Assembly (NCBI GenBank): GCA_937873315.1
Contig: CALMQX010000036.1
Location: forward strand, 89,457 to 153,456
DNA: 64,000 nucleotides
Direction: 5' to 3'
Source of the DNA: an uncultured Nostocoides sp.
Lineage (GTDB): Bacteria > Actinomycetota > Actinomycetes > Actinomycetales > Dermatophilaceae
Below the pieces are notes generated by a model. It worked only from the letters and a program-made list of their open reading frames with translations. It ran no database searches and was not told where the DNA came from. Below, piece after piece: positions 3,283 through 56,167 of the stretch. Position 1 is the first letter of the stretch, and every line of letters starts with the position of its first letter. The translations under genes and the position numbers were made by a program.

Positions 3283-3951
3283 TCAGCGCGCGTGGGTTCG
3301 CCGCTCAAGGCCGTCGAGGATGAGATCGAGGACAAAGCCAAAGCCGTCCAGCTCGTCTCCGGCTGCCCCATCGTGCTCGAGGTGATACCGCAGATGCTGG
3401 GCCATCCGAGGGAAGGTGTCCTCGGGGAACTCCGCCGACGCCCTGCCAGCCAGCTCTTGCGCGCGTGCCTCTTGCGCGGCATACGCAAGCTCCTGCGAGG
3501 TGAAGCCACCGATGTGCAGGGTGATCGCGTGGTAGCCCACGTCGCGCAGATCGGGCTCGACACCACCGAGGGCCAACAATTCGAGCATCATCTCCATCAC
3601 GGCCTTGCGGGCGGGTCCGGGGAAGTAGGCCAACCAGATCGGCCCGGCCCAGCGATGGCGCAAGAGCAGGGCGTGCTGGTCGACCGCTAGTGCGCGCAGC
3701 TCGGCCTTCCAGCCAGCCGCGCTCGGCTCGGGCAGCCGAATCTCGGCTGCCACGAGCTCCAGCATGCCCTCGAGCAGGTCGTGCTTGCTCGAGATGTGGT
3801 TGTAGAGCGACATCACCTCAAAGCCCACGGCGGTGGCCAGTTTGCGCATGCTCAGACCGTCGAGTCCCTGCCCGTCAGCGACCTCGACGGCCGCTGCAAG
3901 GATGCGCTCGCGGGTTAGTCGGGGCCGGATCGCCTGATCGCCGGTTGCCAT
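3283..3951 (-). CDS. TetR family transcriptional regulator (TetR_C tetracycline-repressor-like C-terminal domain)
   Basis: 222 aa. N-terminal HTH RERILAAAVEVADGQGLDGLSMRKLATAVGFEVMSLYNHISSKHDLL. Divergent from the sulfurtransferase with only a 28-bp gap. Confidence 0.85.
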   Translation of the reverse strand: MATGDQAIRPRLTRERILAAAVEVADGQGLDGLSMRKLATAVGFEVMSLYNHISSKHDLLEGMLELVAAEIRLPEPSAAGWKAELRALAVDQHALLLRHRWAGPIWLAYFPGPARKAVMEMMLELLALGGVEPDLRDVGYHAITLHIGGFTSQELAYAAQEARAQELAGRASAEFPEDTFPRMAQHLRYHLEHDGAAGDELDGFGFVLDLILDGLERRTHAR

Positions 3952-44740: not shown

Positions 44741-44986
44741 GCCCGGTGACCACCAACACGAACGGGGTATCGACTGCTCCGCTGCATCTCGACAGCGGTG
44801 TGCCAGCGAGTCGGCCGGCAGGACATGATCAAATGAGGTCCGTGATCGCCGAGGAACTCAGGCGCACCGGAATTCGTCGGGCGGCGCGTATCACCACAGC
44901 GGACGAAACGAGGTGGCACCATCACCAGTGCGAGAGACGGCATACCGGCGTCATGCCGATGAGCGTGCGGTGTTCGATCGAGACGC

Positions 44987-45709
44987 CTACAGGACGCCCC
45001 GCCGCGACAACTTATCCAGGTCGCGCACGCAGAAGCGGTGGTGTTCCCATTCCTCATTGAGCACCGTGCCGAGGCATTGCTGCACTCGCCGGCCCTTGGC
45101 ATAGGGCGGCCATCTGTCGTCGTCCGGCACCAGCGCGGGCATGGCGAGTCGTTCGGGTGTGACCTCGGCCAGGAAGGCCTCAACCTCCGACGCCTGCCTT
45201 TCGCGGACGATGAGCACCTCGTCAAGCTCCGGCCGAGCCGACCGGTCGAGACCCAGCTCCTCCTGATCCGGCACGAACGCAGATGCCAGCCCCATCGCCG
45301 TGAACGGCTCGGTCAGTCCAAGCACGCAGCGCCGGAACCAGGAGTCGTGCACGAAGACGAGGTGGCGCAGCGTCTCGATCGTCGACCACTCGCGGTCAAC
45401 ACTCTCGTGCTCGGTGCCCTCAGGCATCGACCGGACTCGCTCGATGGTCGCGGCCCAGTCATCCCCCAATTGTTGCCAGGCCATGCGCAGATCTCCCGGA
45501 TCCTCGGAGCGGATGAGCAGCCGCACGGGGTAGCGACGGTCGAGCTCCGCCTCGACGTACGGCATCACCTCGACCCCGTTAACGCTGAGGTTGGTGACCA
45601 GGCCGTCGATCTCAACGTTCTCCATGACAACGCCGACCAAACGCGCCCCACTCAGGTCGCACTCGCGGAACTCCGCCCCGGCCAGGTCTTCGTCGTCAAA
45701 ACGTCGCAT
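44987..45709 (-). CDS. pentapeptide-repeat protein fused to a DinB_2-like domain
   Basis: DLAGAEFRECDLSGARLVGVVMENVEIDGL pentapeptide repeats, then a DinB-like helical bundle (WSTIETLRHLVFVHDSWF...EEWEHHRF). Confidence 0.7.
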   Translation of the reverse strand: MRRFDDEDLAGAEFRECDLSGARLVGVVMENVEIDGLVTNLSVNGVEVMPYVEAELDRRYPVRLLIRSEDPGDLRMAWQQLGDDWAATIERVRSMPEGTEHESVDREWSTIETLRHLVFVHDSWFRRCVLGLTEPFTAMGLASAFVPDQEELGLDRSARPELDEVLIVRERQASEVEAFLAEVTPERLAMPALVPDDDRWPPYAKGRRVQQCLGTVLNEEWEHHRFCVRDLDKLSRRGVL

Positions 45710-45836
45710 GCATCCAGGCTAGGACGCGGCGCCGACACTCGACCGGGCCTGCCGCGACCACTGCACCTATGGAAGGCGCCGCGCTTGCCGGCATCGAGGC
45801 CTGACCGGCGTCGGTGGGGCGTCGTAGCCTGAGCCG

Positions 45837-46250
45837 ATGGCCGCCACACCCGCCCGCCGCCTCACCGACGACGTCCCCGACGACATTGAGCGGCGCCTGC
45901 GCCACCTGTGCCTCGCCCTCCCCGACGCCTACGAGGAGCATGCCTGGGTCGGTACCCGATGGCGGGTGCGCAACCGGACCTTCGTGCACGTCCTCGGGAT
46001 CGACGACCCTCTGGAGGGCGCACACGTGGTCATGACCTTCCGCGCCTCGAGCGAGGAATTCGCGGCGCTGCAGCACGCGGGCCCGCCCTTTTACGTTCTC
46101 GGCTGGGGCCGTGACGCGATGGGCCTCAAACTCGGCGCCACCACCGACTGGGACGAGGTCGCCGAACTTGTCGTGGAGTCGTACTGCGTCCTGGCCCCGA
46201 AGAAGCTTGTCGCGCTGGTCGACCGCCCGTCCACGAAGGCACCTGAGTAG
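45837..46250 (+). CDS. MmcQ/YjbR family DNA-binding protein
   Basis: 137 aa. LRHLCLALPDAYEEHAWVGTRWRVRNRTFVHVL...VMTFRASSEE. Confidence 0.75.
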   Translation: MAATPARRLTDDVPDDIERRLRHLCLALPDAYEEHAWVGTRWRVRNRTFVHVLGIDDPLEGAHVVMTFRASSEEFAALQHAGPPFYVLGWGRDAMGLKLGATTDWDEVAELVVESYCVLAPKKLVALVDRPSTKAPE

Positions 46251-46401
46251 CCCCGGTCGCCGTCCGCGCGGGCAGTGATGATCGGCACCGACTCCTTCTC
46301 TTCCGCGGCGACAGAGATGAAGACGTCCCACGTCTACCCGCCGAGGGCGTCTCCTTCGGGCTCAATTGGGTCGCGGAGTTCAACTCGGCTGATGGGGCTC
46401 G

Positions 46402-46561
46402 TCTCGCGAATCGCGAGGCAACAGTCCGGGCGGGGGCGGCTGCGGGGTACTTTGCACGATCGCCTCGATCTGGCTGGCATGCGCAAGATCCAGGATGGTT
46501 GTTCAGATGCAGCCAACATTGCATCACCGCGTGCGGGGAACCTTCATAGAAGGCACGATCC
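46402..46561 (+). repeat. repeat-family copies A' and A (two tandem units)
   Basis: A': hairpin CTCGCGA-a-TCGCGAG, then CTGCGGGGTACTTTGCACGATCG...GCGCAAGATCC (to 46491). A: GTTCAGATGCAGCCaacaTTGCAtcaccgcGTGCGGGGAACCTTca[8-nt insert]GGCACGATCC. It ends 22 nt before the RCC1 stop. Confidence 0.6.
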
Positions 46562-46583
46562 AGCAGTGGCATGGAAGAACCAC

Positions 46584-47568
46584 TCAGGCGAGTGCGACTT
46601 CATCCCATCCATCCACGTCGCATTGCCCGTGGTCGTTGCACCCGGTCGCCCGAACCGTTCCGTCGCTGCGCAAACCCAACGTATGCCGGGAACCCGCCGC
46701 CACTGCGACGATGCCCCTCCATCCGCCTACCTCGCACTGGCCGTCATAGTTCGCCCCAGCGGCGAGGACACGCCCATCCATCGTGAGACGACAGTGTGGT
46801 AACTCCCTGCGGCTGCGGCCACCACGCCCCTCCACCCAGACACCGTCAGCAGCGGCAGGGACATCCCCGGCGGTCAACACTCGACCATCCGAGGTGACCC
46901 CGACGGTATACAGGTAGCCCGCCGCAATCCCCGTGACCTTCGTCCAACCGCCCACCTGGCACTGACCACGGAGGTTCGCCCCGGCCGCGACCGCTGTCCC
47001 GTCAGCGCGCAGGCCGACGGAATGCCAGTCACCGCACGAGAGCCCGATGATCTCGCTCCATCCCTCGACAGCGCACGCGCCCTCACGCGCCCGGCCGGCG
47101 ACGAGCACGGCGCCATCACGGCGAAGGCCTAATGTTCGACGCCATCCCGCCGCGATGGCCACGACATCAGCCCAATCGTCCACGTCGCACTGACGGTCTC
47201 CGTTCCAGCCAGATGCCCGAACCATCCCACCCCGGATCAGTGTGCAAACGTCCGGTGTTACGTGCGGTATGCACGTTGCCGGCAGCCACGGCAAGGACGT
47301 CAACCCAACCTTCGACATTGCGCTCACCGGCCATCCCGTTACCGGCCGTGAGCACGCGTCCGTCACGACGCGCAGCAACCGAGTGGCGTCGGCCGGCGGC
47401 CAAGCTATGGAAGTTGTCGAATGGGACCACCTTCCGATGATGCCCCACTACGGGCACAGAAGCAGAGAGGACGAGACCTCCTCCGCTGGCCTGCCCGGCC
47501 GGGCTCTTTTCCCAAGTGTCAGTACTCGCGACGACCGCATAACACTCCGTCCACGACACGCCCGGCAT
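46584..47568 (-). pseudogene. RCC1-repeat beta-propeller gene disrupted by frameshifts
   Basis: Two overlapping ORFs (47167-47988 frame and 46584-47378 frame) each carry RCC1-type blades. By comparison with the 13692 copy, the reading frame switches near 47245. Residues encoded at 46784-46841 read as nonsense, while an alternative frame gives canonical GWRGVVAAAAGSYHTVV. Confidence 0.6.
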
Positions 47569-47607
47569 GCAAAACGTCGGCCAATTCTTAAAATCGATGG
47601 CCGTTCC

Positions 47608-47707
47608 TACAAGATTCGGTGCATCTGTCGAGATGCACCCATACTTGCACGATCCCGTGCGGGGAACCTCGCACGATCGCGTCCTGTTCGCGATGCTGTG
47701 CAAGACC
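47608..47707 (+). repeat. repeat-family copy B (full unit bounded by CAAGAyyC boxes)
   Basis: TACAAGATTC, then hairpin GGTGCATC-tgtcga-GATGCACC, then the 54-nt core 47627-47680, ending at GTGCAAGACC. Confidence 0.6.
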
Positions 47708-47842
47708 CCGTACCTGGCCTCATGGCAGGGTGCTCCCAAATCGAAACGTGGACGAGCGCCCTTGAACCCCCGTGCATCCACACCGGCCTCGAGGCATCTT
47801 GGCGGGAAATGAAGGTGCCGTCGCGCGGGAGAAGCCTCTAGG

Positions 47843-48310
47843 TCACGCGTCCGAGGTGGTGTTGCGTTTCGAGGGAGCCTGTTTCGCATGCAGCCAGAGG
47901 GTGCGGAGGTAGCTGCGTAGCTCATCTCGCTCAGAGGAACCCAACGGCGCGAGTAGTTCGTCTTCGATTCTTCCAGTGGCGGTGGCAAGTTCAGCGGCAG
48001 CTTTCACTCCCTCGCTGCTGAGCGAGAGGACACGGCGACGGCGATCTGCCGGATCGTCACCGCGCTCGATAAGTGCACGCTGCTCCAACGGCGCTACCAC
48101 TGGCCCCATGTTCCGCGGATCAACCAGCACGATGTCGGCGAGCGCGGTGACTCCGAGCGGACCGGTCGCGTGGAGGGTCAGCAGTATCGCGTGGTGGTGC
48201 GGCGTGAGACCACGCTCGACCAGCACCTCAGTCCACGATCGCGTCGCGATCACCCCAAGCTGGGACAGGAGGAACCCGACCGAAGACTCGAACGACGCGT
48301 CCGCAGGCAT
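47843..48310 (-). CDS. MarR family transcriptional regulator
   Basis: 155 aa. GFLLSQLGVIATRSWTEVLVERGLTPHHHAILLTLHATGPLGVTALADIV...DRRRRVLSLS. Confidence 0.85.
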   Translation of the reverse strand: MPADASFESSVGFLLSQLGVIATRSWTEVLVERGLTPHHHAILLTLHATGPLGVTALADIVLVDPRNMGPVVAPLEQRALIERGDDPADRRRRVLSLSSEGVKAAAELATATGRIEDELLAPLGSSERDELRSYLRTLWLHAKQAPSKRNTTSDA

Positions 48311-48338
48311 ACGCCCATCCTACTGGACTAAAGACATG

Positions 48339-48364
48339 AGTCATGATAATCATGAATTATGACT
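48339..48364. promoter_or_regulatory. nested palindrome AGTCATGAtaaTCATGAattATGACT (candidate MarR operator)
   Basis: Lies in the 48-bp divergent intergenic region and overlaps the SDR start codon at 48359. Confidence 0.45.
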
Positions 48365-49177
48365 ATCCTAGTCACTGGCGCGACGAGCGGTATCGGGCTG
48401 GCCGCAGCAACACTCCTCGCGCGACAGGGCCGCGACGTGGTGCTGGTGGGTCGAACTGAGCGCACCGCGTCGGCTGCCGCGGCCATTGTGCGAGCCGACG
48501 CGGACGCTGCGACGGTGTCCTGGCATGCGGCCGATCTTGCCTGTCCGGATCAGGTCGGCACCTTGGCCCGCCGGGTGAGTTTGGAGCATCCCCGTCTAGA
48601 TGGCCTGGTGTTGTGCGCCGCGGTATCGAACCCCGACCAAGTGACAACCGAGGGAATCGACACCACACTGGCGGTCAATCACCTGGCTCCGGTGCTGCTG
48701 ACTCGGCTGCTCGATCAGCACCTCTTAGGTGGGCGGATCATGCTGGTGTCTTCGTCCCGGCACGGCTCGGCAGGCCCGTTCGACCCTGAGATCTTCGCAC
48801 TCGGCTCACAGGCATCAGCCGTGCACCGATACGAGGCGACCAAGCTGCTGAACCTGCTTTTCGCCTCGGCGCGTCTACGTCGCCCACATGGCGCCCCAAT
48901 GGAGACGATCGATCCCGGATTCGTCCGAACCGGCCTGGGGCGCAACGCCCGCGGCGCATTCAGGCTTCTGCTCACTCTGACACGGCCGTTCCAAAGCTCG
49001 CCCCAGGTTCCCGCACAACGCATCGCCGACAGGCTTCTCGCGGACGACTTCCAAGACGGGTCACACGTGGGCCTGAACGGCGCGGCCCAGCTCGCGGCGA
49101 ACGCGCGGGACGAGGCCGCTGCCGAGCTCGCGTGGGAGTGGACCAACGATGTGCTGACGCGAAGCAAGTGGGAATGA
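48359..49177 (+). CDS. SDR-family oxidoreductase
   Basis: MTILVTGATSGIGLAAA..., LVLCAAV, S...YEATK catalytic motif. Confidence 0.85.
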   Translation: MTILVTGATSGIGLAAATLLARQGRDVVLVGRTERTASAAAAIVRADADAATVSWHAADLACPDQVGTLARRVSLEHPRLDGLVLCAAVSNPDQVTTEGIDTTLAVNHLAPVLLTRLLDQHLLGGRIMLVSSSRHGSAGPFDPEIFALGSQASAVHRYEATKLLNLLFASARLRRPHGAPMETIDPGFVRTGLGRNARGAFRLLLTLTRPFQSSPQVPAQRIADRLLADDFQDGSHVGLNGAAQLAANARDEAAAELAWEWTNDVLTRSKWE

Positions 49178-49208
49178 ACGAAGCAAGTGGAATGAAAGGG
49201 GAAACGTT

Positions 49209-49526
49209 GTGAAGAACATCCTTCTAGTCGGACGAAACCAGTGGGTGGTGGATGGTGCGAAACGAGAACTGGACTCCGAGAGCATCTGTGTCCTCGGCGC
49301 TCTGAGCGTCGTCGATGTCGAGCAGGCGTTCGTGCGACACACCATCGACCATGTGTTCATCGGTCCAGGACTCGATCTCGATACGAGGCTGCAGGCGGTC
49401 CGGGTCGTGTTCTCCGAAAGCGACCACACGACCGTGCATATGAAGGATCACTCCACCGGGCCAGAAGGCGGACTGAACTTCGTCCGGGCCATCCTCAGCG
49501 GACTCACGGAGTTGGACGCCAACTGA
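49209..49526 (+). CDS. hypothetical small Rossmann-like protein
   Basis: 105 aa from GTG. KNILLVGRNQWVV...IDHVFIGPGLDLDTRL. Followed by a strong hairpin. Confidence 0.5.
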   Translation: MKNILLVGRNQWVVDGAKRELDSESICVLGALSVVDVEQAFVRHTIDHVFIGPGLDLDTRLQAVRVVFSESDHTTVHMKDHSTGPEGGLNFVRAILSGLTELDAN

Positions 49527-49532
49527 GGCGCT

Positions 49533-49566
49533 GAACCAGCGACCTTGCGTTCTTGGTCGCTGGTTC
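49533..49566 (+). terminator. intrinsic-terminator-like hairpin
   Basis: GAACCAGCGACC-ttgcgttctt-GGTCGCTGGTTC: a perfect 12-bp stem starting 7 nt after the stop codon. There is no U-tract, as is common in high-GC actinobacteria. Confidence 0.55.
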
Positions 49567-49664
49567 GACGCCCTGGACGGGCTTGGCCGTCGGGCCGCTG
49601 AGACCGACCGCACCTCCTGAACAACGCAGGGCACGGCATCAAGGCTTGGACATAATTCCGCGCT

Positions 49665-49803
49665 TATGTTGCATAGCCTTGCACCCCGCGCAAGATTCAG
49701 TGCATCTCGACAACTGACTTTGATCCCCCCCCATCTCGACAAAACCCCTGTCGAGGTACAGCGAAGACTGCACCACGCCGTGCAGTGCACTTTGCACAAC
49801 TGG
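49665..49803 (+). repeat. repeat-family copy C (with internal duplication of the CATCTCGACA segment)
   Basis: GCGCAAGATTC-aGTGCATCTCGACA...CATCTCGACA-aaacccc-TGTCGAG, then the 54-nt core 49750-49803. Confidence 0.6.
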
Positions 49804-49937
49804 ACTCCGCCGGTATGCCACGTGAAAAGTAGGTGTCTCCCCGTCAGGAGAGGCCCGAGGCGGCTTGACCTTGACGAGGGGGCGGCAAGCATTCGACGCC
49901 AGGCTTCTTGGGGGACCAGGGAGGGCAGCGAAACACC

Positions 49938-50390
49938 TCAATCGCGCATCAAGGAGACGGCTTGCATGCGGGAGGTCGCTCGCGCGAGAAACCGGCTCGT
50001 CTGGGTGAGGCTGCGCTCAGATTCCCCGTCGATGAGCGCCTGCTCGACCTGGATGACCCAGGTGTGCGCCGCCGCGAGCCGCTTCTTGCCCTTCTGCGTG
50101 AGCCGCAGGGCTACCGCACGACCCGGGTTCTCGTCTTCATCGCGGGAGATGAGGCCGTCGGCCTCGAGCCCCTTGACCAGGCGCATCATCGTCTGTGGTG
50201 TCACGAAGGCCCGCCGCGCGAGTTCGGCGGATGTGAGGCCGGGCTCCATGTCCATGAAGGTCAGCACGCCGTAGCGGCTGGTGGTCAACCCATGACGTCT
50301 CAGTCCCTGATCCAGCGCCGCGACCAGAGCCCGCTCGAGCCGCACGACGCCGTAACCCAAGGGGTGGTCATCCTGCGTGCGGGTGGTCAT
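49938..50390 (-). CDS. MarR family transcriptional regulator
   Basis: 150 aa. LDQGLRRHGLTTSRYGVLTFMDMEPGLTSAELARRAFVTPQTMMRLVKGLEADGLISR. Confidence 0.85.
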   Translation of the reverse strand: MTTRTQDDHPLGYGVVRLERALVAALDQGLRRHGLTTSRYGVLTFMDMEPGLTSAELARRAFVTPQTMMRLVKGLEADGLISRDEDENPGRAVALRLTQKGKKRLAAAHTWVIQVEQALIDGESERSLTQTSRFLARATSRMQAVSLMRD

Positions 50391-50436
50391 GACCTGGAGC
50401 CTAGCGCTGACCTTGGCGTCTCCATAGGTTGATTAA

Positions 50437-50471
50437 ATCAGCATGCTGTCATATCGTCTCAGCACGCTGAT
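50437..50471. promoter_or_regulatory. 12-bp inverted repeat ATCAGCATGCTG / CAGCACGCTGAT (candidate MarR operator)
   Basis: Arms at 50437-50448 and 50460-50471 with one mismatch. Located in the MarR/ABM divergent intergenic region. Confidence 0.4.
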
Positions 50472-50513
50472 ACGACGAATCGGAGTCGACGGCCCAACAC
50501 CCAGGAGCTCGCC

Positions 50514-51152
50514 ATGAACAGTCCCGTCCTTGAACTCGCCGTGCGCCGCGTCAAGCCCGGCCGAGAGGACGACTTCCGCGCCGCCCGATCGGCCTTCCTT
50601 TCGCAGTGGAAGACCCAGCCAGGCGCGACGGCGGACCGCGAGTTCGCCGCGCTGATGACCCTGCCAACACCTATGGAAGGCGTCTTCGTCGGCATGACCG
50701 CGTGGGAATCACCCGAGGCTTACCAGGCCGCGTCCGGGAAGTTCTGGGATGACCCGGTCCTGTCGAACTTCATGGACACCGTCGAGATCGTCGCTTTCGC
50801 GATCATCCGTCAGACCGAAGGTCCGGCCATCGATCTAGCGTCGTTGGCGACCGAAGGCCAGGTTCTCGAGGTCGCCGTTCGCGCACCCAAGGGCGTTGAT
50901 GTCCAGACCTTCGAAGACGCTCGCCAGGGGTACGTGGGCGCGTTGGGGACCCAGCCTGGCGTACTGGCAAGTTACGAGTTCGCCATCGTGGACGAGCCGA
51001 TGGAAGGCCGGCGCGTGGGCATGACCCTTTATGCGTCGAAGCAGGGCTGGCAGGACGCCATGTCCGCCGCTGGCCAGTCCGAAGCGGGCGGCCGGTTCTT
51101 CTCGGTCATCGATCCCACGGTCGTCGCGTACGTGGCCCCGACCAGCGTCTGA
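50514..51152 (+). CDS. tandem ABM (antibiotic-biosynthesis-monooxygenase-like, ferredoxin-fold) domain protein
   Basis: 212 aa with two similar halves (LELAVRRVKPGREDDF...GMTAWESPEAYQAA and LEVAVRAPKGVDVQTF...GMTLYASKQGWQDA). Confidence 0.65.
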   Translation: MNSPVLELAVRRVKPGREDDFRAARSAFLSQWKTQPGATADREFAALMTLPTPMEGVFVGMTAWESPEAYQAASGKFWDDPVLSNFMDTVEIVAFAIIRQTEGPAIDLASLATEGQVLEVAVRAPKGVDVQTFEDARQGYVGALGTQPGVLASYEFAIVDEPMEGRRVGMTLYASKQGWQDAMSAAGQSEAGGRFFSVIDPTVVAYVAPTSV

Positions 51153-51205
51153 ACCATGCGCAACCCCGAAACGCCGCACATCCTCCCCGTCCTGAAAGGA
51201 ATGAC

Positions 51206-52171
51206 ATGAGCATGACCAGTCGTACTCGACGACTCGTGGTCCCCGGTCTCGTTGCCGCGGTCGCCGGATCCTTCATCGTCAGCGCGCCTGCTGCCATGGG
51301 TTCGCCCGACCCCAACACGGTGCACCCAACGTCACCGCACCACAACGAAGCCAGCGTCAACAAGGCTGCTGCCATCGACGCATACGCTCGACTGTTCGCC
51401 GGAGACGGCAGTGCAGTTGACCAGTACTTCGCTCGTGACTTCATCAACCACAACCCGCTGGCGCCACGAGATGCGTTCACCGGCTACAAGGACTTGGCCG
51501 CTGCCTTCGCCAACGTCCACTTCCGGTTGTGGGAGCCGCTGCGCGTGGTCGCCGACGGCGACTACGTCGGCATCCAAGGCCTGTACCAGTTCGACTCCAT
51601 GACCACCTTCCGACCCACCCAGTCGGGACCCGGGGTCGTCGGTTTCGATCTCTTCCGCTTCGACCACGGCAAGATCGTCGAACACTGGGACGCGCTCCAA
51701 GACGTCGTGCCGCCATCGCAAACCCCCGACAACAACGACATGATCGGCGGCGGCGCCGGCATCCCCGGCCACCGCGCCATCAACCCCAAGAAGGTCGTCC
51801 ACACCGTTGTCCAGATCAGTCAGGGCCGGACCGACCACATCAGGTCGCGATTCAGCCCTGACTACATCAACCACAACCCCTACGGCACCGACGGCTGGGC
51901 AGGAGTCCAGTCACTTGCCCAGGCATTCGGCACCGCTGGGTTCCAGATGTACACGCCCCACCGTTGGTTCGCCGACGGCAACCTTGTCGTCCTCCAGGGC
52001 ATCTTCCACCTGCACAGCACATCCGCGTTCACGCCAGACCGCACCGGCCCCGGAGTGGTCGCCTTCGACATCTTCCGAATCGGCGACAACGGGAAGATCG
52101 TTGAGCACTGGGACATCCTGCAGAACAACGTTCCAGCGGCCTCTACGGTCAGTGGGCTGCCCACCATCTAG
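51206..52171 (+). CDS. secreted tandem SnoaL-like / NTF2-family protein
   Basis: Possible Tat-type signal MSMTSRTRRLVVPGLVAAVAGSFIVSAPAAMG. Two halves each end in ...FRF/IGD.GKIVEHWD.LQ. Confidence 0.7.
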   Translation: MSMTSRTRRLVVPGLVAAVAGSFIVSAPAAMGSPDPNTVHPTSPHHNEASVNKAAAIDAYARLFAGDGSAVDQYFARDFINHNPLAPRDAFTGYKDLAAAFANVHFRLWEPLRVVADGDYVGIQGLYQFDSMTTFRPTQSGPGVVGFDLFRFDHGKIVEHWDALQDVVPPSQTPDNNDMIGGGAGIPGHRAINPKKVVHTVVQISQGRTDHIRSRFSPDYINHNPYGTDGWAGVQSLAQAFGTAGFQMYTPHRWFADGNLVVLQGIFHLHSTSAFTPDRTGPGVVAFDIFRIGDNGKIVEHWDILQNNVPAASTVSGLPTI

Positions 52172-52536
52172 TCACGCACCAACGCGCCGCGGTGGTGCCA
52201 GGCTCCGAGCATAGGAACCTGACACCACCGCGATCGCGCGATGCACTGAACCGCCCCAGCTGTCGGACGCTCTGGCGGCTCTTCCTCATCGAGGTGCAGG
52301 GAGCGCGGGCGCGTCGGTGGCCAGGCTAGGGGTCGAGGCCATCCGATGATGGGAGTTCTGAAGGTCGCCGTGATCGGTCGAGTCCGCGGTCTGGTTGCCT
52401 TTCAGCGATTGGTGACCTGGGCGACCCGGATTGCTACAAGGAGTTCAAGATCGGGGCGGTCCGGCACCAGAGGTACTCGCAGGAGGCCATCGCGACCGTG
52501 CTGGTATCCATCAAGCAGGCGGGCCGTGGTAGCCGC

Positions 52537-52671
52537 TATGCAACATGCGCGACCGTTTGTGCAATGTAGGCGGCCGCTCGACAACAACTGTCGAGATGCA
52601 GCCGAGTTTGCAGGACCGTGTGCGAGGTAGTCTTCACGATCGACCCGGCCTTGCCGAGCTGTGCAAGATCC
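52537..52671 (+). repeat. repeat-family copy D (full unit)
   Basis: CTCGACA-acaac-TGTCGAG hairpin (52577-52595). 54-nt core at 52590-52643. Ends in GTGCAAGATCC (52661-52671), 17 nt before the YdeI-like stop. Confidence 0.6.
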
Positions 52672-52687
52672 GGGTTGGGGTTCATCG

Positions 52688-53200
52688 TTAGGATGACGGG
52701 TGCCGCATCCCCATGTGGGCGCCACCTTGCTGAAGCTCCCTCTGCATTTGGGTGACTCGCTGGCGGGTCTCGGGTCGCTTCGCCCGGGCGATCCGGGCAA
52801 GGTAGTCGTTGCGTTGGTAGGCGGGTCGATTGTCGTAGTCGCCGCGCAACAGGTGTTGGGCGAGCAGGTCGGCAACATCGTCGGGCAGGTCCTGTGTCGG
52901 CCTTCGGAGGGTCATGCCAGCCCGTCCGGCACGACAGCGAGTGCGTCGATCTCCAACGAGAACTCCCGGTCGCGCGAACGCCGCAACGGTGAGCACAGTG
53001 ACTGCGGTGGGGTTCGCGCCCCATACCTCGAACGCCGAGGCATACCCGGCCCCAAGCATCGGCCGGTCAGCGAGATTGAAACCAAGCCGCGCGACATGGC
53101 TCGCGTCCACTCTCACTTCGGCGAGCGCCATGAGGACGTTGCGCAGCGCTTGCTTTCGTCTGCGCACAGTGGTGAGTGGAGACCAGGGCTCCGGTGGCAT
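52688..53200 (-). CDS. YdeI/OmpD-associated family protein (N-terminal part uncertain)
   Basis: The C-terminal 75 aa (MTLRRPTQDLPDDVADLL...NRPAYQRNDYLARIARAKRPETRQRVTQMQREL) is clearly YdeI-like. The upstream 95 codons only loosely resemble DUF1905 and may contain frameshifts. Confidence 0.55.
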   Translation of the reverse strand: MPPEPWSPLTTVRRRKQALRNVLMALAEVRVDASHVARLGFNLADRPMLGAGYASAFEVWGANPTAVTVLTVAAFARPGVLVGDRRTRCRAGRAGMTLRRPTQDLPDDVADLLAQHLLRGDYDNRPAYQRNDYLARIARAKRPETRQRVTQMQRELQQGGAHMGMRHPSS

Positions 53201-53265
53201 CGATGCGGAGCACCTCCGTGAGACGGCTCGCGTCTCACGATATCAACATGAGTTGACGGCGCGCC

Positions 53266-53529
53266 ATGTCATCAACTATGGTTGATGACATGGTAAGCGA
53301 GCCGGACGCATCTGTAGACGACCCGGCGGCGGCGTTTGCGTCGGTCGTTGCCATGCGTCGGGCAGCGGCGGTCTTGGAACGGGCCGCAGTTGATCGTGCT
53401 CTCGCGCAGGGTTGGACGTGGTCTCTGATCGGTCAGGCGTTGGGGACGAGCGCGCAGGCTGCTCATAAACGCCTCGCTCCGTCTAAACGACCTTTTCGAA
53501 AGGGAGACAGTGATGGCTTTGGTAAATGA
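53266..53529 (+). CDS. small HTH protein commonly paired with Clp_N-domain proteins
   Basis: 87 aa. RAAVDRALAQGWTWSLIGQALGTSAQAAHKRL. Confidence 0.55.
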   Translation: MSSTMVDDMVSEPDASVDDPAAAFASVVAMRRAAAVLERAAVDRALAQGWTWSLIGQALGTSAQAAHKRLAPSKRPFRKGDSDGFGK

Positions 53530-53959
53530 CATGCGGACGGTCGCGGCGTTGTTAGAGGCCGCCGAACGCGAGGCGCACGCGATGGGGGATGAACTGCCGG
53601 GGGCTGAGCACCTTGTGCTAGCTGCTCTCGTCGACAGTGATGAATCGGGGCGCGTTCTCCTGGGGTTTGACGCGGACCAGTTCCGGCACGCCGTGGACAC
53701 TGTCCATGCGGAAGCCCTTAAGACGATCGGGCTTCACCCGGACACTTTTCCCGCTCTTCCCGCCGTAGCGCGTGGGCGTGTGTATCGAGGTGAGGAATCG
53801 TTGGGTGAGGTGTTGGAGCGGGCTCGGCTGCTTGCCCGTCAGTCACGGCCGCAGGGTCTGCGCACTTCCCACATCATCCGCGCTGCAGCTCACCGCGAGC
53901 ATGGCACGACGGCCAGGGCATTCGACCTCTTGCACGTCGACCGGGACAGCCTGCAATGA
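53513..53959 (+). CDS. Clp amino-terminal (Clp_N) domain protein
   Basis: ATG 53513 after AGGGAGA. AEREAHAMGDELPGAEHLVLAALVD...LGEVLERARLLARQSRPQGLRTSHIIRAA gives two Clp_N repeats. Confidence 0.7.
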   Translation: MALVNDMRTVAALLEAAEREAHAMGDELPGAEHLVLAALVDSDESGRVLLGFDADQFRHAVDTVHAEALKTIGLHPDTFPALPAVARGRVYRGEESLGEVLERARLLARQSRPQGLRTSHIIRAAAHREHGTTARAFDLLHVDRDSLQ

Positions 53960-55011
53960 GCACGTACCGGCCCGCTGGTGTCGCGGCCACGATAGTTGCA
54001 GCGTGCCTGTTGTTGGCGGGGTGCGTGTCCGCGCCGGCAGTCACCCCGCGCACCTCGGGCGCAGATGGAATCCAGCAGAGCGACGCGGTCCTCAACCAGT
54101 TGCTCACGTCTTCTGAACCGGGTTGCTCTGCCGCTGTTGCTCGAGATGGCCACGTTGTCTGGGCGGGCGCGCTCGGCCTGGCAAACACCGCATCTCACAC
54201 CTCTCTGACCACGGGCAGCCGGTTCGATTTCGCATCTGTGTCAAAGCAGTTCACCGCGACCGCGATTCTCCTCCTGGCCGAGGAGGGGGCGCTCTCGCTA
54301 TCTGACTCGGTGAGGCACTGGCTGCCGGCTCTGCCGGCCTGGGCCGAACGCATCACAGTCGCAGACCTGCTGCACCACACCACCGGCATCTCCGACTACG
54401 CTCCGACCCTCACCGGTCAAGGCCACACCCTGACCGACCCGACGACTCAAGCAGACGCTCTCGCGGTGATAGCAGCAACCACGCCCGCAGAGCCGGGGCG
54501 GTTCGACTACTCCAACTCCAACTACGTCCTCCTCGCCGAGATCGCCAGCACCGTCACGAACATGCCTTTCGGCGAGTTCCTCGCAGGCCAGGTCTTCGGT
54601 GCAGCGCCACTCGCACTCGAGCCCGCCTCACCCGACACCGTCACCGGGTACTCCGACGGCAAGCCCGTCACCTCGGCGTGGAAGCAGATCGGCGACGGCG
54701 GGATCGTTGGAACACCATCGGAACTCGCGCAATGGGCGGACTACTACCGCCAGGGTCTCCCCGGGCACCCATCCCTCCCCGCTGCGGCCGTCGCGGACGC
54801 CGTCGACACCGGCGATCCCGCCGGAAGTCGATACGGCGCCGGCATCCTGGTCGGGAGCGACGGCAGTCTCAGCCACATCGGCTCCTGGGCAGGCGAAGTC
54901 ACTCTCTTCGGGGTCGCCCCGGACCGACAGACCAGCATCGTCGTCAGCTGCAACAGCACCTCCGCGCCCGCCAACACTCTCGCCCAAGCCCTACGCACCA
55001 TCTGGCAGTAG
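53956..55011 (+). CDS. serine hydrolase (class-C beta-lactamase / DD-peptidase family) lipoprotein
   Basis: Lipobox LLLAGC. Active-site SxxK motif as FASVSKQFTA. YSNSNYVLL. Confidence 0.85.
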   Translation: MSTYRPAGVAATIVAACLLLAGCVSAPAVTPRTSGADGIQQSDAVLNQLLTSSEPGCSAAVARDGHVVWAGALGLANTASHTSLTTGSRFDFASVSKQFTATAILLLAEEGALSLSDSVRHWLPALPAWAERITVADLLHHTTGISDYAPTLTGQGHTLTDPTTQADALAVIAATTPAEPGRFDYSNSNYVLLAEIASTVTNMPFGEFLAGQVFGAAPLALEPASPDTVTGYSDGKPVTSAWKQIGDGGIVGTPSELAQWADYYRQGLPGHPSLPAAAVADAVDTGDPAGSRYGAGILVGSDGSLSHIGSWAGEVTLFGVAPDRQTSIVVSCNSTSAPANTLAQALRTIWQ

Positions 55012-55233
55012 TCTTCGCCAAGGAAGAAGCCTCGACTCGTGAGAATGTGCAAGCGTGGGCGATCGATGGAGACCCTTGCGCGCGAAAGCGCTGCCGCGGG
55101 CATGGGTCGATTGCTGCGGGGCTGGGTCATCGCCATGAACGGCTCGTGATCAATGCGGCAAGAACCTTAGGCGAATTCATCCTGGACACGCTCAGCGATC
55201 CCCGGAGCGCCGTGGCAGAGGTTCGACGGAGGC

Positions 55234-55620
55234 TCAGGGCAAGGCAATTGAGCTCAACCCGTAGACGCGAATACAACCTAGAACGCGAATCGCCTCTCGG
55301 CTGTCGAGATGCACCGCAGATTGCACGAGCGCATGCCGGGCACCTTGCACGTTCCGATGGAAGGTCTGCCCCTGGGCCTGGCCGTCGTCCCATGAGGGAA
55401 ACACCAGCCGCAACTCGTCGACGAGTCGCGTTCGTGTCCCGGTGTTGTACAGCCAGATCGGAAGTCTGACGCCGAGCCGGCGATCGGTCGCAACGTAGCC
55501 CGAGAACGCCGGGATGCTCGACATGATGAGCTTGCCGCGCCGAGCTTGAAGCCACCAGAAACTCGAAACGGTGAAGATCAGCGCCGCGACGGATACCAGG
55601 AGCGCCGGAGTCATGAGCAT
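55234..55620 (-). CDS. hypothetical single-TM protein whose C-terminus is encoded by repeat copy E
   Basis: MLMTPALLVSVAALIFTVSSFWWL TM helix. From ...TFHRNVQGARHALVQSAVHLDS onward the ORF reads through the repeat core (55303-55356). Confidence 0.4.
   Translation of the reverse strand: MLMTPALLVSVAALIFTVSSFWWLQARRGKLIMSSIPAFSGYVATDRRLGVRLPIWLYNTGTRTRLVDELRLVFPSWDDGQAQGQTFHRNVQGARHALVQSAVHLDSREAIRVLGCIRVYGLSSIALP
55295..55356 (+). repeat. repeat-family copy E (core only, left hairpin arm lost)
   Basis: GTCGAGATGCACCgcagaTTGCACgagcgcATGCCGGGCACCTTGCACGTTCCG, ungapped against B, C, D and F. Confidence 0.55.
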
Positions 55621-55748
55621 CTCCGCAGTCGCATTCGTCGTGCTGGGCAAGTGCGGGCAAGCCACAGGACGCCGCAACGTACTCGCGTAATCGAAGGAGC
55701 GAGCGCCGTCGCACCGACCGAGTCCTCCGGCAACTTAAAGTTCATCGG

Positions 55749-55838
55749 GCAAGAGTTCAATCTTCGCTGCGTCTCGACACCCCTGTCGAGACGCAGCCGA
55801 AATTGCACGCGCGCGCGGGGGGCACATCGCACAACTAG
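55749..55838 (+). repeat. repeat-family copy F (most complete hairpin)
   Basis: GCAAGAGTTC box, then a perfect 14-bp stem GCTGCGTCTCGACA-cccc-TGTCGAGACGCAGC (55766-55797), then the core to 55838. Confidence 0.6.
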
Positions 55839-56167
55839 TCCCTAGGGCGAACCCCAGTCCAAAGTGGACGGACGTCGGGGGGTCTGTCGGCAAGGCCTAG
55901 GCGGCCCATTGGATTCCGACCGCTAGACACGTTTTGTCCCCGCCAGGCCCGGGCATCGAGCTAGGTCAGTGCAGATCGTTTTGTGCTGGCGGTCATCCTG
56001 TGGGGCCTTTGGCTACCGGCTAACCGGTACGGCCATTAGCCACCAGCCGACGGCGAGTGCACGATGCACCCCGACCGACGGGAAGTAGGTGCGCGCTGCC
56101 GTAGTTGGGACCCCACTCCCCCGACGACAGTGGACTCATTCGCACGGACAACAAAGGAGTGGGTGTC

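Follow-up and report, generated by a model that had tools for sequence, protein, structure and literature searches.

Organization of the repeat array

Within the window, that is the whole 64-kb stretch of DNA analysed here, a repeat search detected a single family, on the plus strand only, whose seven 54-nt copies (starting at 46408, 46499, 47625, 49748, 52588, 55301 and 55783) showed 61-100% ungapped identity to copy B. The seven same-orientation copies of the original prediction were therefore recovered, and computational alignment reproduced their ungapped 54-nt core. A profile made from the six cores retrieved these six (E = 7e-15 to 1.4e-12) and no further full core copy on either strand of the 64 kb; its weaker matches were partial copies, all within the repeat region. 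As claimed, the family is polar and limited to 46.4-55.9 kb, where the tally was six 54-nt cores and one half copy, all on the same strand. The core proved to be the outer part of a conserved unit of ~90 nt, the L-type end (Table 1), to which the ~30-nt extension to GTGCAAGAyC reported in A', B and D also belongs. Two entries of the copy list had to be amended: A' comprises the 3′ half of the unit alone (L-model positions 34-87), the 5′ half including the TGT terminus being absent, and copy E has the core and is of L-end origin over its first ~61 nt, after which the end is cut. In L-type end A the terminus is mutated (TGTTCAG).

The repeats sit exactly at the borders of small gene modules, as had been stated, and Pfam searches showed that the genes had been assigned broadly correctly (an RCC1 relic, two MarR, SDR, ABM, SnoaL, YdeI/OmdA, Clp_N and a beta-lactamase-fold protein). 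The RCC1 pseudogene consists of two overlapping ORFs, 46584-47378 and 47167-47988, with RCC1_2 matches at 5e-32 and 2e-5. In most modules the first gene lies on the opposite strand to the others, and the gene set of module B was also called in L062-L067. The GC content given as 48% for 47581-47640 was computed as 48.3%, and that of the island (44796-56052) was 64.6%, against 66.7% in the left flank and 69.0% in the right flank. Outside the range first described, a solo terminus located 37 nt past a TetR stop codon reads CTGTCGAGATGCAGCGGA on the minus strand (...TCGACAG on the plus strand); one more module, a decayed one lying to the left, ends here. The right border falls between 55872 and 56053, the position at which synteny with an end-free relative (L068) begins; stub F adjoins this conserved flank, and decay has also affected the leftmost units.

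Table 1. Probable transposon ends and cargo genes of the array (window coordinates)
Feature	Position	Strand	Evidence
Solo 18-nt transposon terminus	44778-44795	-	Terminal-36-nt profile, E = 6e-4, model 1-18
A', 3′ half of L-type end	46441-46494	+	nhmmer, 91-nt L-end profile, E = 1.9e-5
L-type end A	46499-46577	+	L-end profile, E = 4.6e-12
Module A cargo, RCC1-repeat pseudogene, frameshifted	46584-47988	-	Pfam RCC1_2, two frames
Module A R-type end	47537-47626	-	R-end profile, model 6-94, E = 1.8e-12
L-type end B	47625-47708	+	L-end profile, E = 4e-17
Module B cargo	47843-49526	mixed	Pfam
MarR, module B	47843-48310	-	Pfam
SDR, module B	48359-49177	+	Pfam
105-aa ORF, module B	49209-49526	+	
Module B R-type end	49620-49712	-	R-end profile, model 1-93, E = 1.3e-13
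Second 10-nt terminal remnant, module B right side	49732-49741	-	Terminal profile
L-type end C	49748-49839	+	L-end profile, E = 9e-17
Module C cargo	49938-52171	mixed	Pfam
MarR, module C	49938-50390	-	Pfam
ABM-like protein, module C	50514-51152	+	Pfam
Double SnoaL protein, module C	51206-52171	+	Pfam
Module C R-type end	52492-52583	-	R-end profile, model 1-92, E = 5.7e-9
L-type end D	52588-52676	+	L-end profile, E = 2.4e-17
Module D cargo	52688-55011	mixed	Pfam
YdeI/OmdA, module D	52688-53200	-	Pfam
87-aa ORF, module D	listed between YdeI/OmdA and Clp_N		
Clp_N protein, module D	53510-53959	+	Pfam
Beta-lactamase-fold hydrolase, module D	53956-55011	+	Pfam
L-type end E	55301-55384	+	Core and L-end profiles
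Module E R-type end	55685-55779	-	R-end profile, model 1-94, E = 1.4e-11; inverted repeat
L-type end F, stub of truncated element	55783-55872	+	Core and L-end profiles

The plus strand of the core translates as VEMQxxLHxxxRGTLHN, and protein-like translations together with some synonymous changes (TTG/CTG and CAC/CAT) would suit 5′-terminal relics of a multi-copy protein gene. This explanation is almost certainly wrong, because no conserved ORF continued past ~30 codons in the 21 copies examined, and the core as such a 5′ end, a possibility raised in the original prediction, was rejected. In addition, some copies carried in-frame stop codons, loop-length differences were not multiples of three, and codon-position variability was 0.56, 0.67 and 0.82 bits, position 2 being more variable than position 1.

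Two types of end meet at the module borders

The L-type end begins with TGT, followed by three direct TGCA(C/G)-containing boxes ~12 and 24 nt apart and one inverted copy (GTGCAAGAT). A second, R-type end of ~93 nt is read on the opposite strand; the consensus sequences (54 distinct L ends, 23 distinct R ends) have their first ~26 nt in common and then diverge, and the element termini are TGT...ACA. Since an R-type end lies at most 7 nt upstream of three of the cores, overlaps a fourth and is found 36 nt upstream of a fifth, the modules are L-cargo-R units arranged head to tail. Both ends are present in units A, B, C and E, no R end was detected in unit D, and A' and F are stubs. The R end of module A, homologous to that of L055 over more than 70 nt, is without its last 5 nt (CGACA) and fused directly to L end B, and 5 nt (ACAAC) and 4 nt (CCCC) separate the R ends of modules C and E from L ends D and F, respectively. 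The doubled terminus at the border of modules B and C recurs in L004 and L015. Among non-redundant L ends, 18/52 abut an R end, with spacers of 2, 4, 5, 5, 5, 7, 8, 17 and up to 79 nt. No 5-bp target-site duplication was found around any unit, in the window or in related loci.

These ends account for the CAAGAtyC box upstream of the cores, which had been equated with the downstream box. The upstream box of B, C and F belongs to the inverted R end, the one before A is the inverted TGCA box on the distal side of A', and an R end is also present upstream of D, where no box had been listed. Instead of direct 8-9-nt boxes delimiting the units, we found transposase-site-like motifs of two end types, and we infer that the TGCA boxes are putative binding sites of the element's DDE transposase.

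The near-perfect palindrome TGCATCTCGACA-N4-TGTCGAGATGCA at some borders and the MarR genes of two modules would also be expected of operators or promoters of a shared regulon, bound by a dimeric regulator such as the MarR of a module. We give this next to no credence, because at least three borders (A, C and D) have convergent genes ending on both sides and are not upstream of genes, the palindrome is missing from most copies in other genomes, and the same ends flank unrelated cargo (restriction-modification, SIR2, metal resistance, RHS). The location of copies between convergent genes, together with sequence conservation across genera and T/C changes that fit G-U pairs in a short GCAG...YTGC stem, would agree with a structured RNA (a cis-regulatory leader, small RNA or terminator/stabiliser) transcribed from each border. 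However, such a hairpin or RNA reading was not borne out: no Rfam match appeared even at E <= 10, RNAalifold gave only -3.2 kcal/mol with a covariation term of almost nil, single copies folded no better than shuffled sequence, and a T-run terminator was absent. Moreover, conservation ends exactly at TGT, where strain sequences diverge, and is therefore a signature of DNA mobility, not of RNA, which leaves a structured RNA extremely unlikely.

Autonomous relatives encode a Tn7-like transposition operon

The same ends occur in at least 10 genera of Micrococcales and Propionibacteriales, the ~90-nt unit being conserved at 11 genome loci across genera and on 43 metagenome contigs, with many matches at contig ends. 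The commonest neighbouring gene family was TniQ (7 loci), with TniB beside it. In 11 loci, an operon encoding a tnsA-like protein, a DDE transposase, TniB (TnsC) and two TniQ proteins faces an L end 3-9 kb downstream, so the recombinase sought by the original prediction does exist in relatives. Four of these 11 loci (L055, L056/L057, L058 and L059) were fetched by TniQ1 protein homology, without recourse to the DNA pattern; all have the order tnsA-like, 735-aa DDE, TniB, TniQ1, small ORFs and TniQ2, and in each an L end lies downstream of the operon with TGT outermost. The TnsA-like protein passed NCBIfam NF033179 ('TnsA_like_Actin', 118.7 bits against a cutoff of 110), and TniB and TniQ passed Pfam. 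These diverged proteins missed the thresholds of the Pfam TnsA and rve models; the 735-aa protein had rve, Mu-transposase-C and retroviral-integrase matches at the expected place, below curated thresholds.

The copies are short, non-coding, partly palindromic, intergenic and repeated, and some lie near ISL3 and IS256 transposases, features also expected of a REP/REPIN or MITE family that owes its spread to a RAYT or IS transposase and its closeness to tni genes to chance. We consider this very unlikely. The gene tniQ2 was transcribed toward the TGT terminus in all 7 pattern-fetched loci, with 3-9 kb of cargo between, and the rule held in 4/4 protein-fetched element types; the ends enclose the whole tns operon plus cargo; a RAYT gene was absent; and the copies are not scattered across the 64-kb window. 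The IS elements lay at varying positions, and Tn7-like elements commonly carry such sequences as cargo (PMC8649781).

Four genomes have an end 6-98 nt past the dnaB stop codon. The dnaB-proximal end was not uniform: the R end begins 6-7 nt past the stop in L059 and L007 and 30 nt past it in L005, and in L003 an L end lies at 98 nt. No report of the dnaB 3′ end as a Tn7-like attachment site was found in the literature searched. Searching the window by tblastn with the element's transposition genes returned no tns homologue, in agreement with the description of the window as transposase-free as far as the element's own tns genes are concerned. Because of this, and because the array is not beside dnaB, its tie to the transposition machinery rests on the relatives, of which L058 and L011 have similar arrays adjoining autonomous elements.

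Modules are exchanged at the conserved ends

Comparison of near-identical (>=99%) sequences revealed divergence 0-2 nt from TGT in six independent sets (L003/L036/L038; L002/L023/L033; L016/L039; L028/L031; L029/L049; L030/L052). Close relatives swap or delete modules at the repeats, and the modules behave as units, as proposed, corresponding slots being filled differently in L062 and L015. The A slot of L062 contains 7 kb of GmrSD-methylase-ResIII; the methylase-ResIII portion, ~4.2 kb, matches the DNA next to tnsA of L056 with 81% identity. A 552-bp deletion (52236-52787) has also removed L end D from L062. In L015 end E is complete, and a 3.2-kb module with ECF sigma factor and GNAT genes follows it in the E slot.

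Differences in module content between strains, the single orientation of the copies, the small modules that they bound and the imperfect inverted repeats at each border recall an integron-like array, in which attC-type single-stranded hairpins would allow a tyrosine recombinase encoded elsewhere to move modules singly. Such an array has only a minute probability here. In the first 54 related loci, integrases were not among the neighbour families that recurred, and the gene tables of the loci fetched by protein listed none either; what recurred was the tnsA/DDE/TniB/TniQ operon. The apparent hairpin is made of two end types from adjacent units and not of one site, the GTTRRRY-type core of R''/R' is absent, and z scores of the downstream hairpin against shuffled sequence ranged from -2.4 to +1.1, mostly near 0. 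Integron cassettes typically lack their own promoter, whereas the opposite-strand first gene of most modules implies a divergent promoter region.

All in all, the repeats are very probably the two end types, L and R, of Tn7-like transposons belonging to one family, and the array a head-to-tail series of cargo units without transposase. The region from 44.8 to 56.05 kb is a real mobile-DNA island of ~11 kb, of a known kind; its repeats are not a new REP, MITE or attC class, and what had been taken for an unrecognised structured repeat is two end types placed back-to-back at the borders. As there are no tns genes in the window, the array is an orphan island whose elements are decayed or non-autonomous. 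We infer the following route of assembly. The tnsA-like protein, 735-aa DDE transposase, TniB/TnsC and two TniQ target selectors of autonomous relatives would drive insertion at a chosen site, one such site being just downstream of dnaB, and repeated insertion beside earlier copies would stack elements in one orientation. Deletions may then strip the tns genes, leaving cargo-only units, or such units may be mobilised in trans, and modules would later be swapped or removed when the conserved ends recombine or suffer deletion. An orphan, mostly decayed island thus supplies its host with self-contained regulator-plus-enzyme modules.

Relationship to known systems

MITEs and other non-autonomous derivatives likewise have both ends, no transposase and presumably mobility in trans only; unlike MITEs, these units carry 1-4 cargo genes and are clustered in one array, not scattered. 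Integron arrays and CALINs (attC clusters without integrase) resemble the island in that polar repeats bound small exchangeable modules, the enzyme is encoded elsewhere and slots are polymorphic between strains. In contrast, the sites here are transposon-end pairs, not attC hairpins, the enzyme system is a DDE transposase, not a tyrosine recombinase, and the divergent regulator layout of most modules implies their own promoters. With Tn5053/Tn402 (tniA-tniB-tniQ-tniR) the family shares TniB, TniQ and arrayed, here putative, transposase-binding repeats in the ends, but it has a TnsA-like endonuclease, its operons showed neither a tniR resolvase nor a res site, and its insertion is chromosomal, unlike 'res-hunting' on plasmids.

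The closest known systems are Tn7 and Tn7-like elements (Tn7, Tn6022, Tn6230, CRISPR-associated transposons), particularly an Actinobacteria-dominated clade that was predicted and is uncharacterised (Benler et al. 2021, PMC8649781). The window's array differs from them in its copies without transposition genes, away from the dnaB site, and in having up to seven ends stacked head-to-tail around units as small as 0.5-2.8 kb, with no 5-bp target duplications recovered around them; the family as a whole differs in its attachment site, the dnaB 3′ end, and in proteins so diverged that they escape the Pfam TnsA and rve thresholds. The shared features are the operon of tnsA-like, DDE (TnsB-type), TniB/TnsC and TniQ genes in relatives; two TniQ-family selectors, dual tniQ genes being common (PMC10293859); asymmetric ends with TGT...ACA termini and several short repeated boxes, Tn7-like ends being arrays of TnsB sites (PMC8649781); cargo in which genes for defence, resistance and regulators abound; and insertion just downstream of an essential gene, with islands or remnants at attachment sites, in line with the TGT/ACA termini, target immunity and attachment-site remnants already described (PMC11014353).

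The 54-nt repeat family

A repeat search of the window recovered a 54-nt family with seven members, which all lie on the + strand and match copy B at 61-100% ungapped identity. When six cores were combined into a profile, it retrieved those six (E = 7e-15 to 1.4e-12) and no further full core copy on either strand of the 64 kb. MAFFT alignment made visible, and so confirmed, the extension of about 30 nt beyond the core to GTGCAAGAyC; the 48% GC counted by hand for 47581-47640 was computed as 48.3%; and the gene calls within the modules were broadly right. The observation is real and well made. It had omitted a partial opposite-strand copy upstream of most cores (inverted repeats I1 and I22) and an additional 18-nt terminal remnant to the left of the array (solo terminus in the table).

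The reading of the copies as a new class of structured repeat did not hold, since they belong to the ends of a Tn7-like family and neither an RNA family nor an RNA fold found support. On the window, no Rfam 15 model reached its gathering score, and on the repeats none gave a hit at E ≤ 10. Results of RNAalifold on 18 copies from nine sources showed a consensus energy of -3.2 kcal/mol with a negligible covariation term, and the downstream 'hairpin' had z-scores mostly near zero in 18 single-copy folds, being no stabler than shuffled sequence. A relic of a coding gene was also considered and rejected. The core translations look protein-like on both strands; no ORF extends past about 30 codons, in-frame stops are present, and variability by codon position amounts to only 0.56, 0.67 and 0.82 bits, a weak periodicity. 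As a promoter or operator, the repeat showed no fit by eye to -35/-10 hexamers or to generally known actinobacterial operators, and the borders sit between convergent genes. A REP/REPIN assignment was rejected as well, with all copies of the 64-kb window confined to 11 kb and no RAYT gene seen.

To look for relatives, we ran a degenerate 49-nt pattern on species-representative genomes, a set that does not include the source genome, and on metagenome contigs. It matched 11 genome loci, from Janibacter (two), Serinicoccus, Phycicoccus, Intrasporangium, Ornithinimicrobium, Austwickia, Nocardioides, Micropruina, Propioniciclava and a Micrococcales MAG, together with 43 metagenome contigs, many of them matched at contig ends. 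Additional, more diverged copies were found in the related loci with a 91-nt profile. Wherever a locus carried two or more full copies, these always had the same orientation (at least 13 loci, including the window). The 10.5-kb region had no match in the plasmid collection, and a relaxed pattern had none among viral contigs. In the metagenome loci (L012-L054), roughly one pattern match in three is no more than 150 nt away from the end of its contig; metagenome assemblies of these taxa therefore often break at these transposon ends.

Association of the repeat with a tns operon

Clustering of the ORFs of the first 54 loci identified TniQ as the commonest neighbour family (7 loci), with TniB adjoining it. 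In all seven, tniQ is transcribed toward the TGT end of the repeat, from which it is separated by 3-9 kb. A second set of loci was retrieved independently of the DNA pattern, through protein homologues of TniQ1, and comprised loci from Ornithinibacter aureus (L055), Serinicoccus marinus (L058), two copies of one metagenome element (L056 and L057) and a 6.65-Mb contig (L059). All of them share one operon order: genes for a 255-aa protein, a 735-aa protein, TniB and TniQ1, 2-3 small ORFs, the TniQ2 gene and then cargo. The repeat lies downstream of this operon with TGT outermost (at 17534 in L056, 18282 in L055, 16539 in L058 and 21196 in L059). Taking both sets together, the tns operon was located inside the ends in L055, L056/57, L058, L059, L011, L024, L046, L009, L019, L030 and L052.

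The 255-aa protein passes the NCBIfam model NF033179 'TnsA_like_Actin' (118.7 bits, cutoff 110), and TniB and both TniQ proteins pass Pfam. Residues 394-600 of the 735-aa protein gave sub-threshold matches to rve, Mu-transposase-C, IS481/IS3, retroviral-integrase and TnsB models; these matches and the gene order make it a putative DDE transposase. A PDB sequence search with the DDE protein alone or with a TnsA-like profile returned no match, and a profile of four DDE sequences returned weak integrase-core matches only. Judged from sequence, the operon is a Tn7-like transposon gene set and the repeat is its tns-distal ('left') end, hereafter the L end. By contrast with this gene set in the relatives, tblastn found no homologue of tnsA, DDE, TniB or TniQ in the 64 kb of the window.

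Several features of these loci were observed along the way. The 2-3 small conserved ORFs between tniQ1 and tniQ2 (L059 11416-12526, L055 11521-12754, L058 11419-12113) occur in every autonomous element, and one of them, of about 103 aa, has a sub-threshold WhiB match (Pfam E = 0.008). In one metagenome locus (L024 6803-9343, - strand, protein P0089), TniB and TniQ domains are joined in a single ORF of 795-847 aa, which looks like a natural TnsC-TniQ fusion or could be an assembly frameshift; in L046 the TniB and TniQ genes stand apart, each in a frame of its own. In L008, L027, L028, L031 and L034, the ends are adjoined by a copper-type P1B ATPase (E1-E2 ATPase with YHS/HMBD domains), which is accompanied by DUF305 and ChrB proteins in L027 and by a DUF305 homologue in L034. 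Metal-resistance cargo seems common in this transposon family.

Two types of end delimit the units

In L059, the first part of the repeat is matched over 33 nt from position 1900, 7 nt past the dnaB stop codon. Alignment of this match with, among others, the window's inverted partial copies defined a second, right-type end (R end), which has TGTCGAGATGCA..AA.CTTG in common with the L end and differs beyond that stretch (…GACGTTATGCA…GCGTTATG). Built from eight R ends, a second profile retrieved full R ends outside its training set; in more than 20 loci, these adjoin L ends back to back. The consensus of 54 distinct L ends is cTGTCGAGATGCAGCgaAgatTGCAcgaccgcgtGCgggGnAcnTTGCACaa…cGTGCAAgaT and that of 23 distinct R ends is TGTCGAGATGCActgAAtcTTGtAagaacG…gacgTTaTGca…gcGTTATg, both starting with (C)TGTCGAG. 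In the window, TGT opens each of the copies B-F and ...CGACA closes the R ends, in agreement with the 5'-TGT...ACA-3' termini of Tn7-like elements. L ends carry TGCA(C/G) boxes at about positions 9, 21 and 45 and an inverted box at about 74; R ends share about 26 nt with L ends and then carry different boxes (GTTATG). The TGCA boxes are putative transposase-binding sites.

These consensus sequences show that the 'CAAGAtyC box', proposed as a direct 8-9-nt box bounding the units, is present and has two origins: the copy downstream of the core corresponds to the inverted L-end box, and the copy upstream to the second box in the neighbouring R end. They also speak against an integron attC site, for which R''-L''...L'-R' boxes (RYYYAAC ... 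GTTRRRY) are not visible in the consensus; the apparent palindrome consists of two different ends. Neither the recurrent neighbour families of the first 54 loci nor the genes tabulated for the protein-retrieved loci included an integrase.

Near tnsA, no R end was found in L055, L056 or L058. Given that 4 kb of genes separate the R end from tnsA in L059, it probably lies beyond the stretch examined in those three. Matching 5-mers, as expected of a 5-bp target-site duplication, were present in 0 of 14 candidate L/R pairs, the copies being old and their pairing in arrays uncertain. Within one array, end identity is 60-78%, and inter-unit spacers range from 2 to about 80 nt (5 and 4 nt at borders D and F).

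Anatomy of the array

The two end profiles resolved the array into the units listed below, with successive TGT-to-TGT distances of 1126, 2123, 2840, 2713 and 482 nt.

Ends and modules of the array, and dnaB regions of four related loci (window coordinates unless a locus is named; single positions are starts of 54-nt copies from the repeat search)
Feature	Position	Strand	Content
Solo terminus	44778-44795		
DinB_2 and YjbR genes			between solo terminus and A'
A'	46408	+	3' half of an L end only
A, module A	46499	+	L_A, RCC1 pseudogene, R_A; R_A lacks its last 5 nt and is fused to L_B
B, module B	47625	+	L_B, MarR, SDR, 105-aa ORF, R_B with a 10-nt terminal remnant; then 7-nt spacer
C, module C	49748	+	L_C, MarR, ABM, SnoaL, R_C; then 5-nt spacer
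D, module D	52588	+	L_D, YdeI, 87-aa ORF, Clp_N, serine hydrolase; no recognisable R end
E, module E	55301	+	L_E cut after 61 nt, about 300 nt, R_E; then 4-nt spacer
F	55783	+	L_F, then at most 180 nt to conserved flank
R end (R-end profile)	47537-47626	-	
R end (R-end profile)	49620-49712	-	
R end (R-end profile)	52492-52583	-	
R end (R-end profile)	55685-55779	-	
dnaB locus, L059	1-1931		
dnaB locus, L007	409-3153		
dnaB locus, L005	3726-7186		
dnaB locus, L003	974-4358		

Two of the cargo genes contain internal repeats. The RCC1-repeat gene (46584-47988) is a pseudogene, because its ORF is split across two frames; its internal repeat of about 114 nt has copy spacings of 114, 225, 114 and 114 nt (family D2). 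The SnoaL gene (51206-52171) is an internal tandem duplication with two SnoaL_2 domains and DNA repeats D8/D20 423 nt apart. A further observation concerns three unrelated borders, at window 49687-49748, L004 (~1000-1064) and L015 (reverse complement, ~3480-3550), which have one layout: a full R terminus, 20-31 nt, a second 9-11-nt copy of the terminus, 5-7 nt and the next L end. At two of the three, the 20-31-nt stretch contains …GACTTTGATCCCCCC…. The doubled terminus could be a duplication or the trace of a lost unit.

Breakpoints and strain variation

We then compared related loci for the positions at which similarity ends. Two of them, L003 and L036, share 99.9% identity along a 1028-nt stretch that stops at the final base of an L end; past that end, L003 runs into dnaB and L036 into the R ends of another element. 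In an all-against-all comparison, six independent sets with at least 99% identity lost similarity 0-2 nt from TGT.

Strain variants of the window were retrieved through an identical SDR protein. L063-L067 match the window (99.97% identity for L063), and its array is also present in the SRR30545107 and SRR31861063 populations. In another close relative, L062, a 7-kb GmrSD-methylase-ResIII module stands in place of window 46289-47653, an interval that spans A', A and the RCC1 relic and reaches 28 nt into B. Its methylase-ResIII part, of about 4.2 kb, is 81% identical to DNA beside tnsA in L056. In the relative L015, slot E is filled by a 3.2-kb module that encodes an ECF sigma factor and a GNAT protein, as against 0.4 kb in the window; L015 retains the full L end of this slot and L_E of the window is truncated. 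Modules are thus polymorphic among relatives, with different modules in the same slot (slot A in L062, slot E in L015). L062 also lacks 52236-52787 (552 bp), a loss that includes border D and the YdeI gene's 3' end. The edges of this deletion (L062 13870-13875 against window 52235/52788) have 6 nt in common, an overlap that points to a microhomology-mediated event rather than to transposase action.

On the right side, locus L068 encodes a BVMO 85% identical in protein to that of the window and is collinear with the window rightwards from 56053 at 80% nucleotide identity, on the right flank only and with no ends found in it. This collinearity places the right border of the island at 55872-56053 and makes F a stub. 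A further locus, L069, has only the BVMO genes in common with the window.

Insertion beside dnaB

The replicative helicase gene dnaB adjoins ends in four related loci (see table), and it bears an intein in all four. In L059 (stop codon at 1893) and L007, only 6-7 nt separate the dnaB stop from the start of an R end, and the flank GGGGT/GGTGT is common to both; an end lies 30 nt past the stop in L005 and 98 nt past it in L003, where the orientation relative to dnaB differs. The unit adjoining dnaB in L005 is 1.35 kb long and consists of an R end, a GNAT gene and an L end, without tns genes. The 3' end of dnaB appears to be an attachment site of this transposon family. The main texts of two surveys of Tn7-like elements (PMC8649781, PMC10293859) and the top-ranked related literature contain no occurrence of dnaB.

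Discussion

The array in the window consists of the ends of an actinobacterial Tn7-like transposon family and of derivatives that carry cargo alone; the repeats are not a new class. The ends are identified as such, are associated with the tns operon and keep a fixed polarity to it; breakpoints fall exactly at the termini, insertions stand beside dnaB, and modules in the same slot vary between strains. Thousands of Tn7-like elements were predicted from arrays of TnsB sites by Benler et al. (2021), including an Actinobacteria-dominated clade with a Micrococcales sub-community called uncharacterised (PMC8649781), and tniQ/tnsD genes in tandem were found at about 1,000 loci by Faure et al. (2023; PMC10293859). 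TGT/ACA termini, target immunity and decayed remnants at attachment sites have been reported for such transposons (PMC11014353).

The arrays probably arose by successive insertion of elements next to earlier ones in one orientation, with older copies subsequently losing their tns genes. In L058 and L011, an autonomous copy is followed by cargo-only units, and slot A of L062 looks like the remnant of an element that lost its tns genes. Alternatively, cargo-only units would be mobilised in trans. Slots might also be reshuffled through recombination and deletion at the conserved ends. By analogy with Tn7 and Tn6022 (PMC11014353), we speculate that divergence among the ends of one array would fit an escape from target immunity.

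The two end profiles give nucleotide-precise borders for a widespread, uncharacterised actinobacterial Tn7-like family and point to the dnaB 3' end as an attachment site. These borders allow the cargo to be listed: restriction-modification, SIR2, GmrSD and metal-resistance genes, as well as regulator-enzyme modules. With its two TniQ proteins and small WhiB-like ORFs, the operon is a candidate for the experimental study of site-directed insertion in high-GC Gram-positive bacteria. Stacked units that carry only cargo, together with the same-slot differences in near-identical strains, show how variable islands are built and remodelled in abundant environmental Micrococcales.

A more far-reaching model, which we consider rather unlikely, treats the array as a cassette platform that combines TniQ-directed head-to-tail growth with exchange of cargo-only units in trans by an autonomous copy. 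One of the two TniQ selectors would send new insertions to the outward side of an end already in place, and these would evade target immunity through the divergence of the ends. The array would grow by cargo-only mini-elements with intact TGT/ACA termini (B, C and E in the window), and an autonomous copy elsewhere in the genome would excise, move and exchange units in trans. If this were true, the array would be a transposase-driven functional analogue of the integron.
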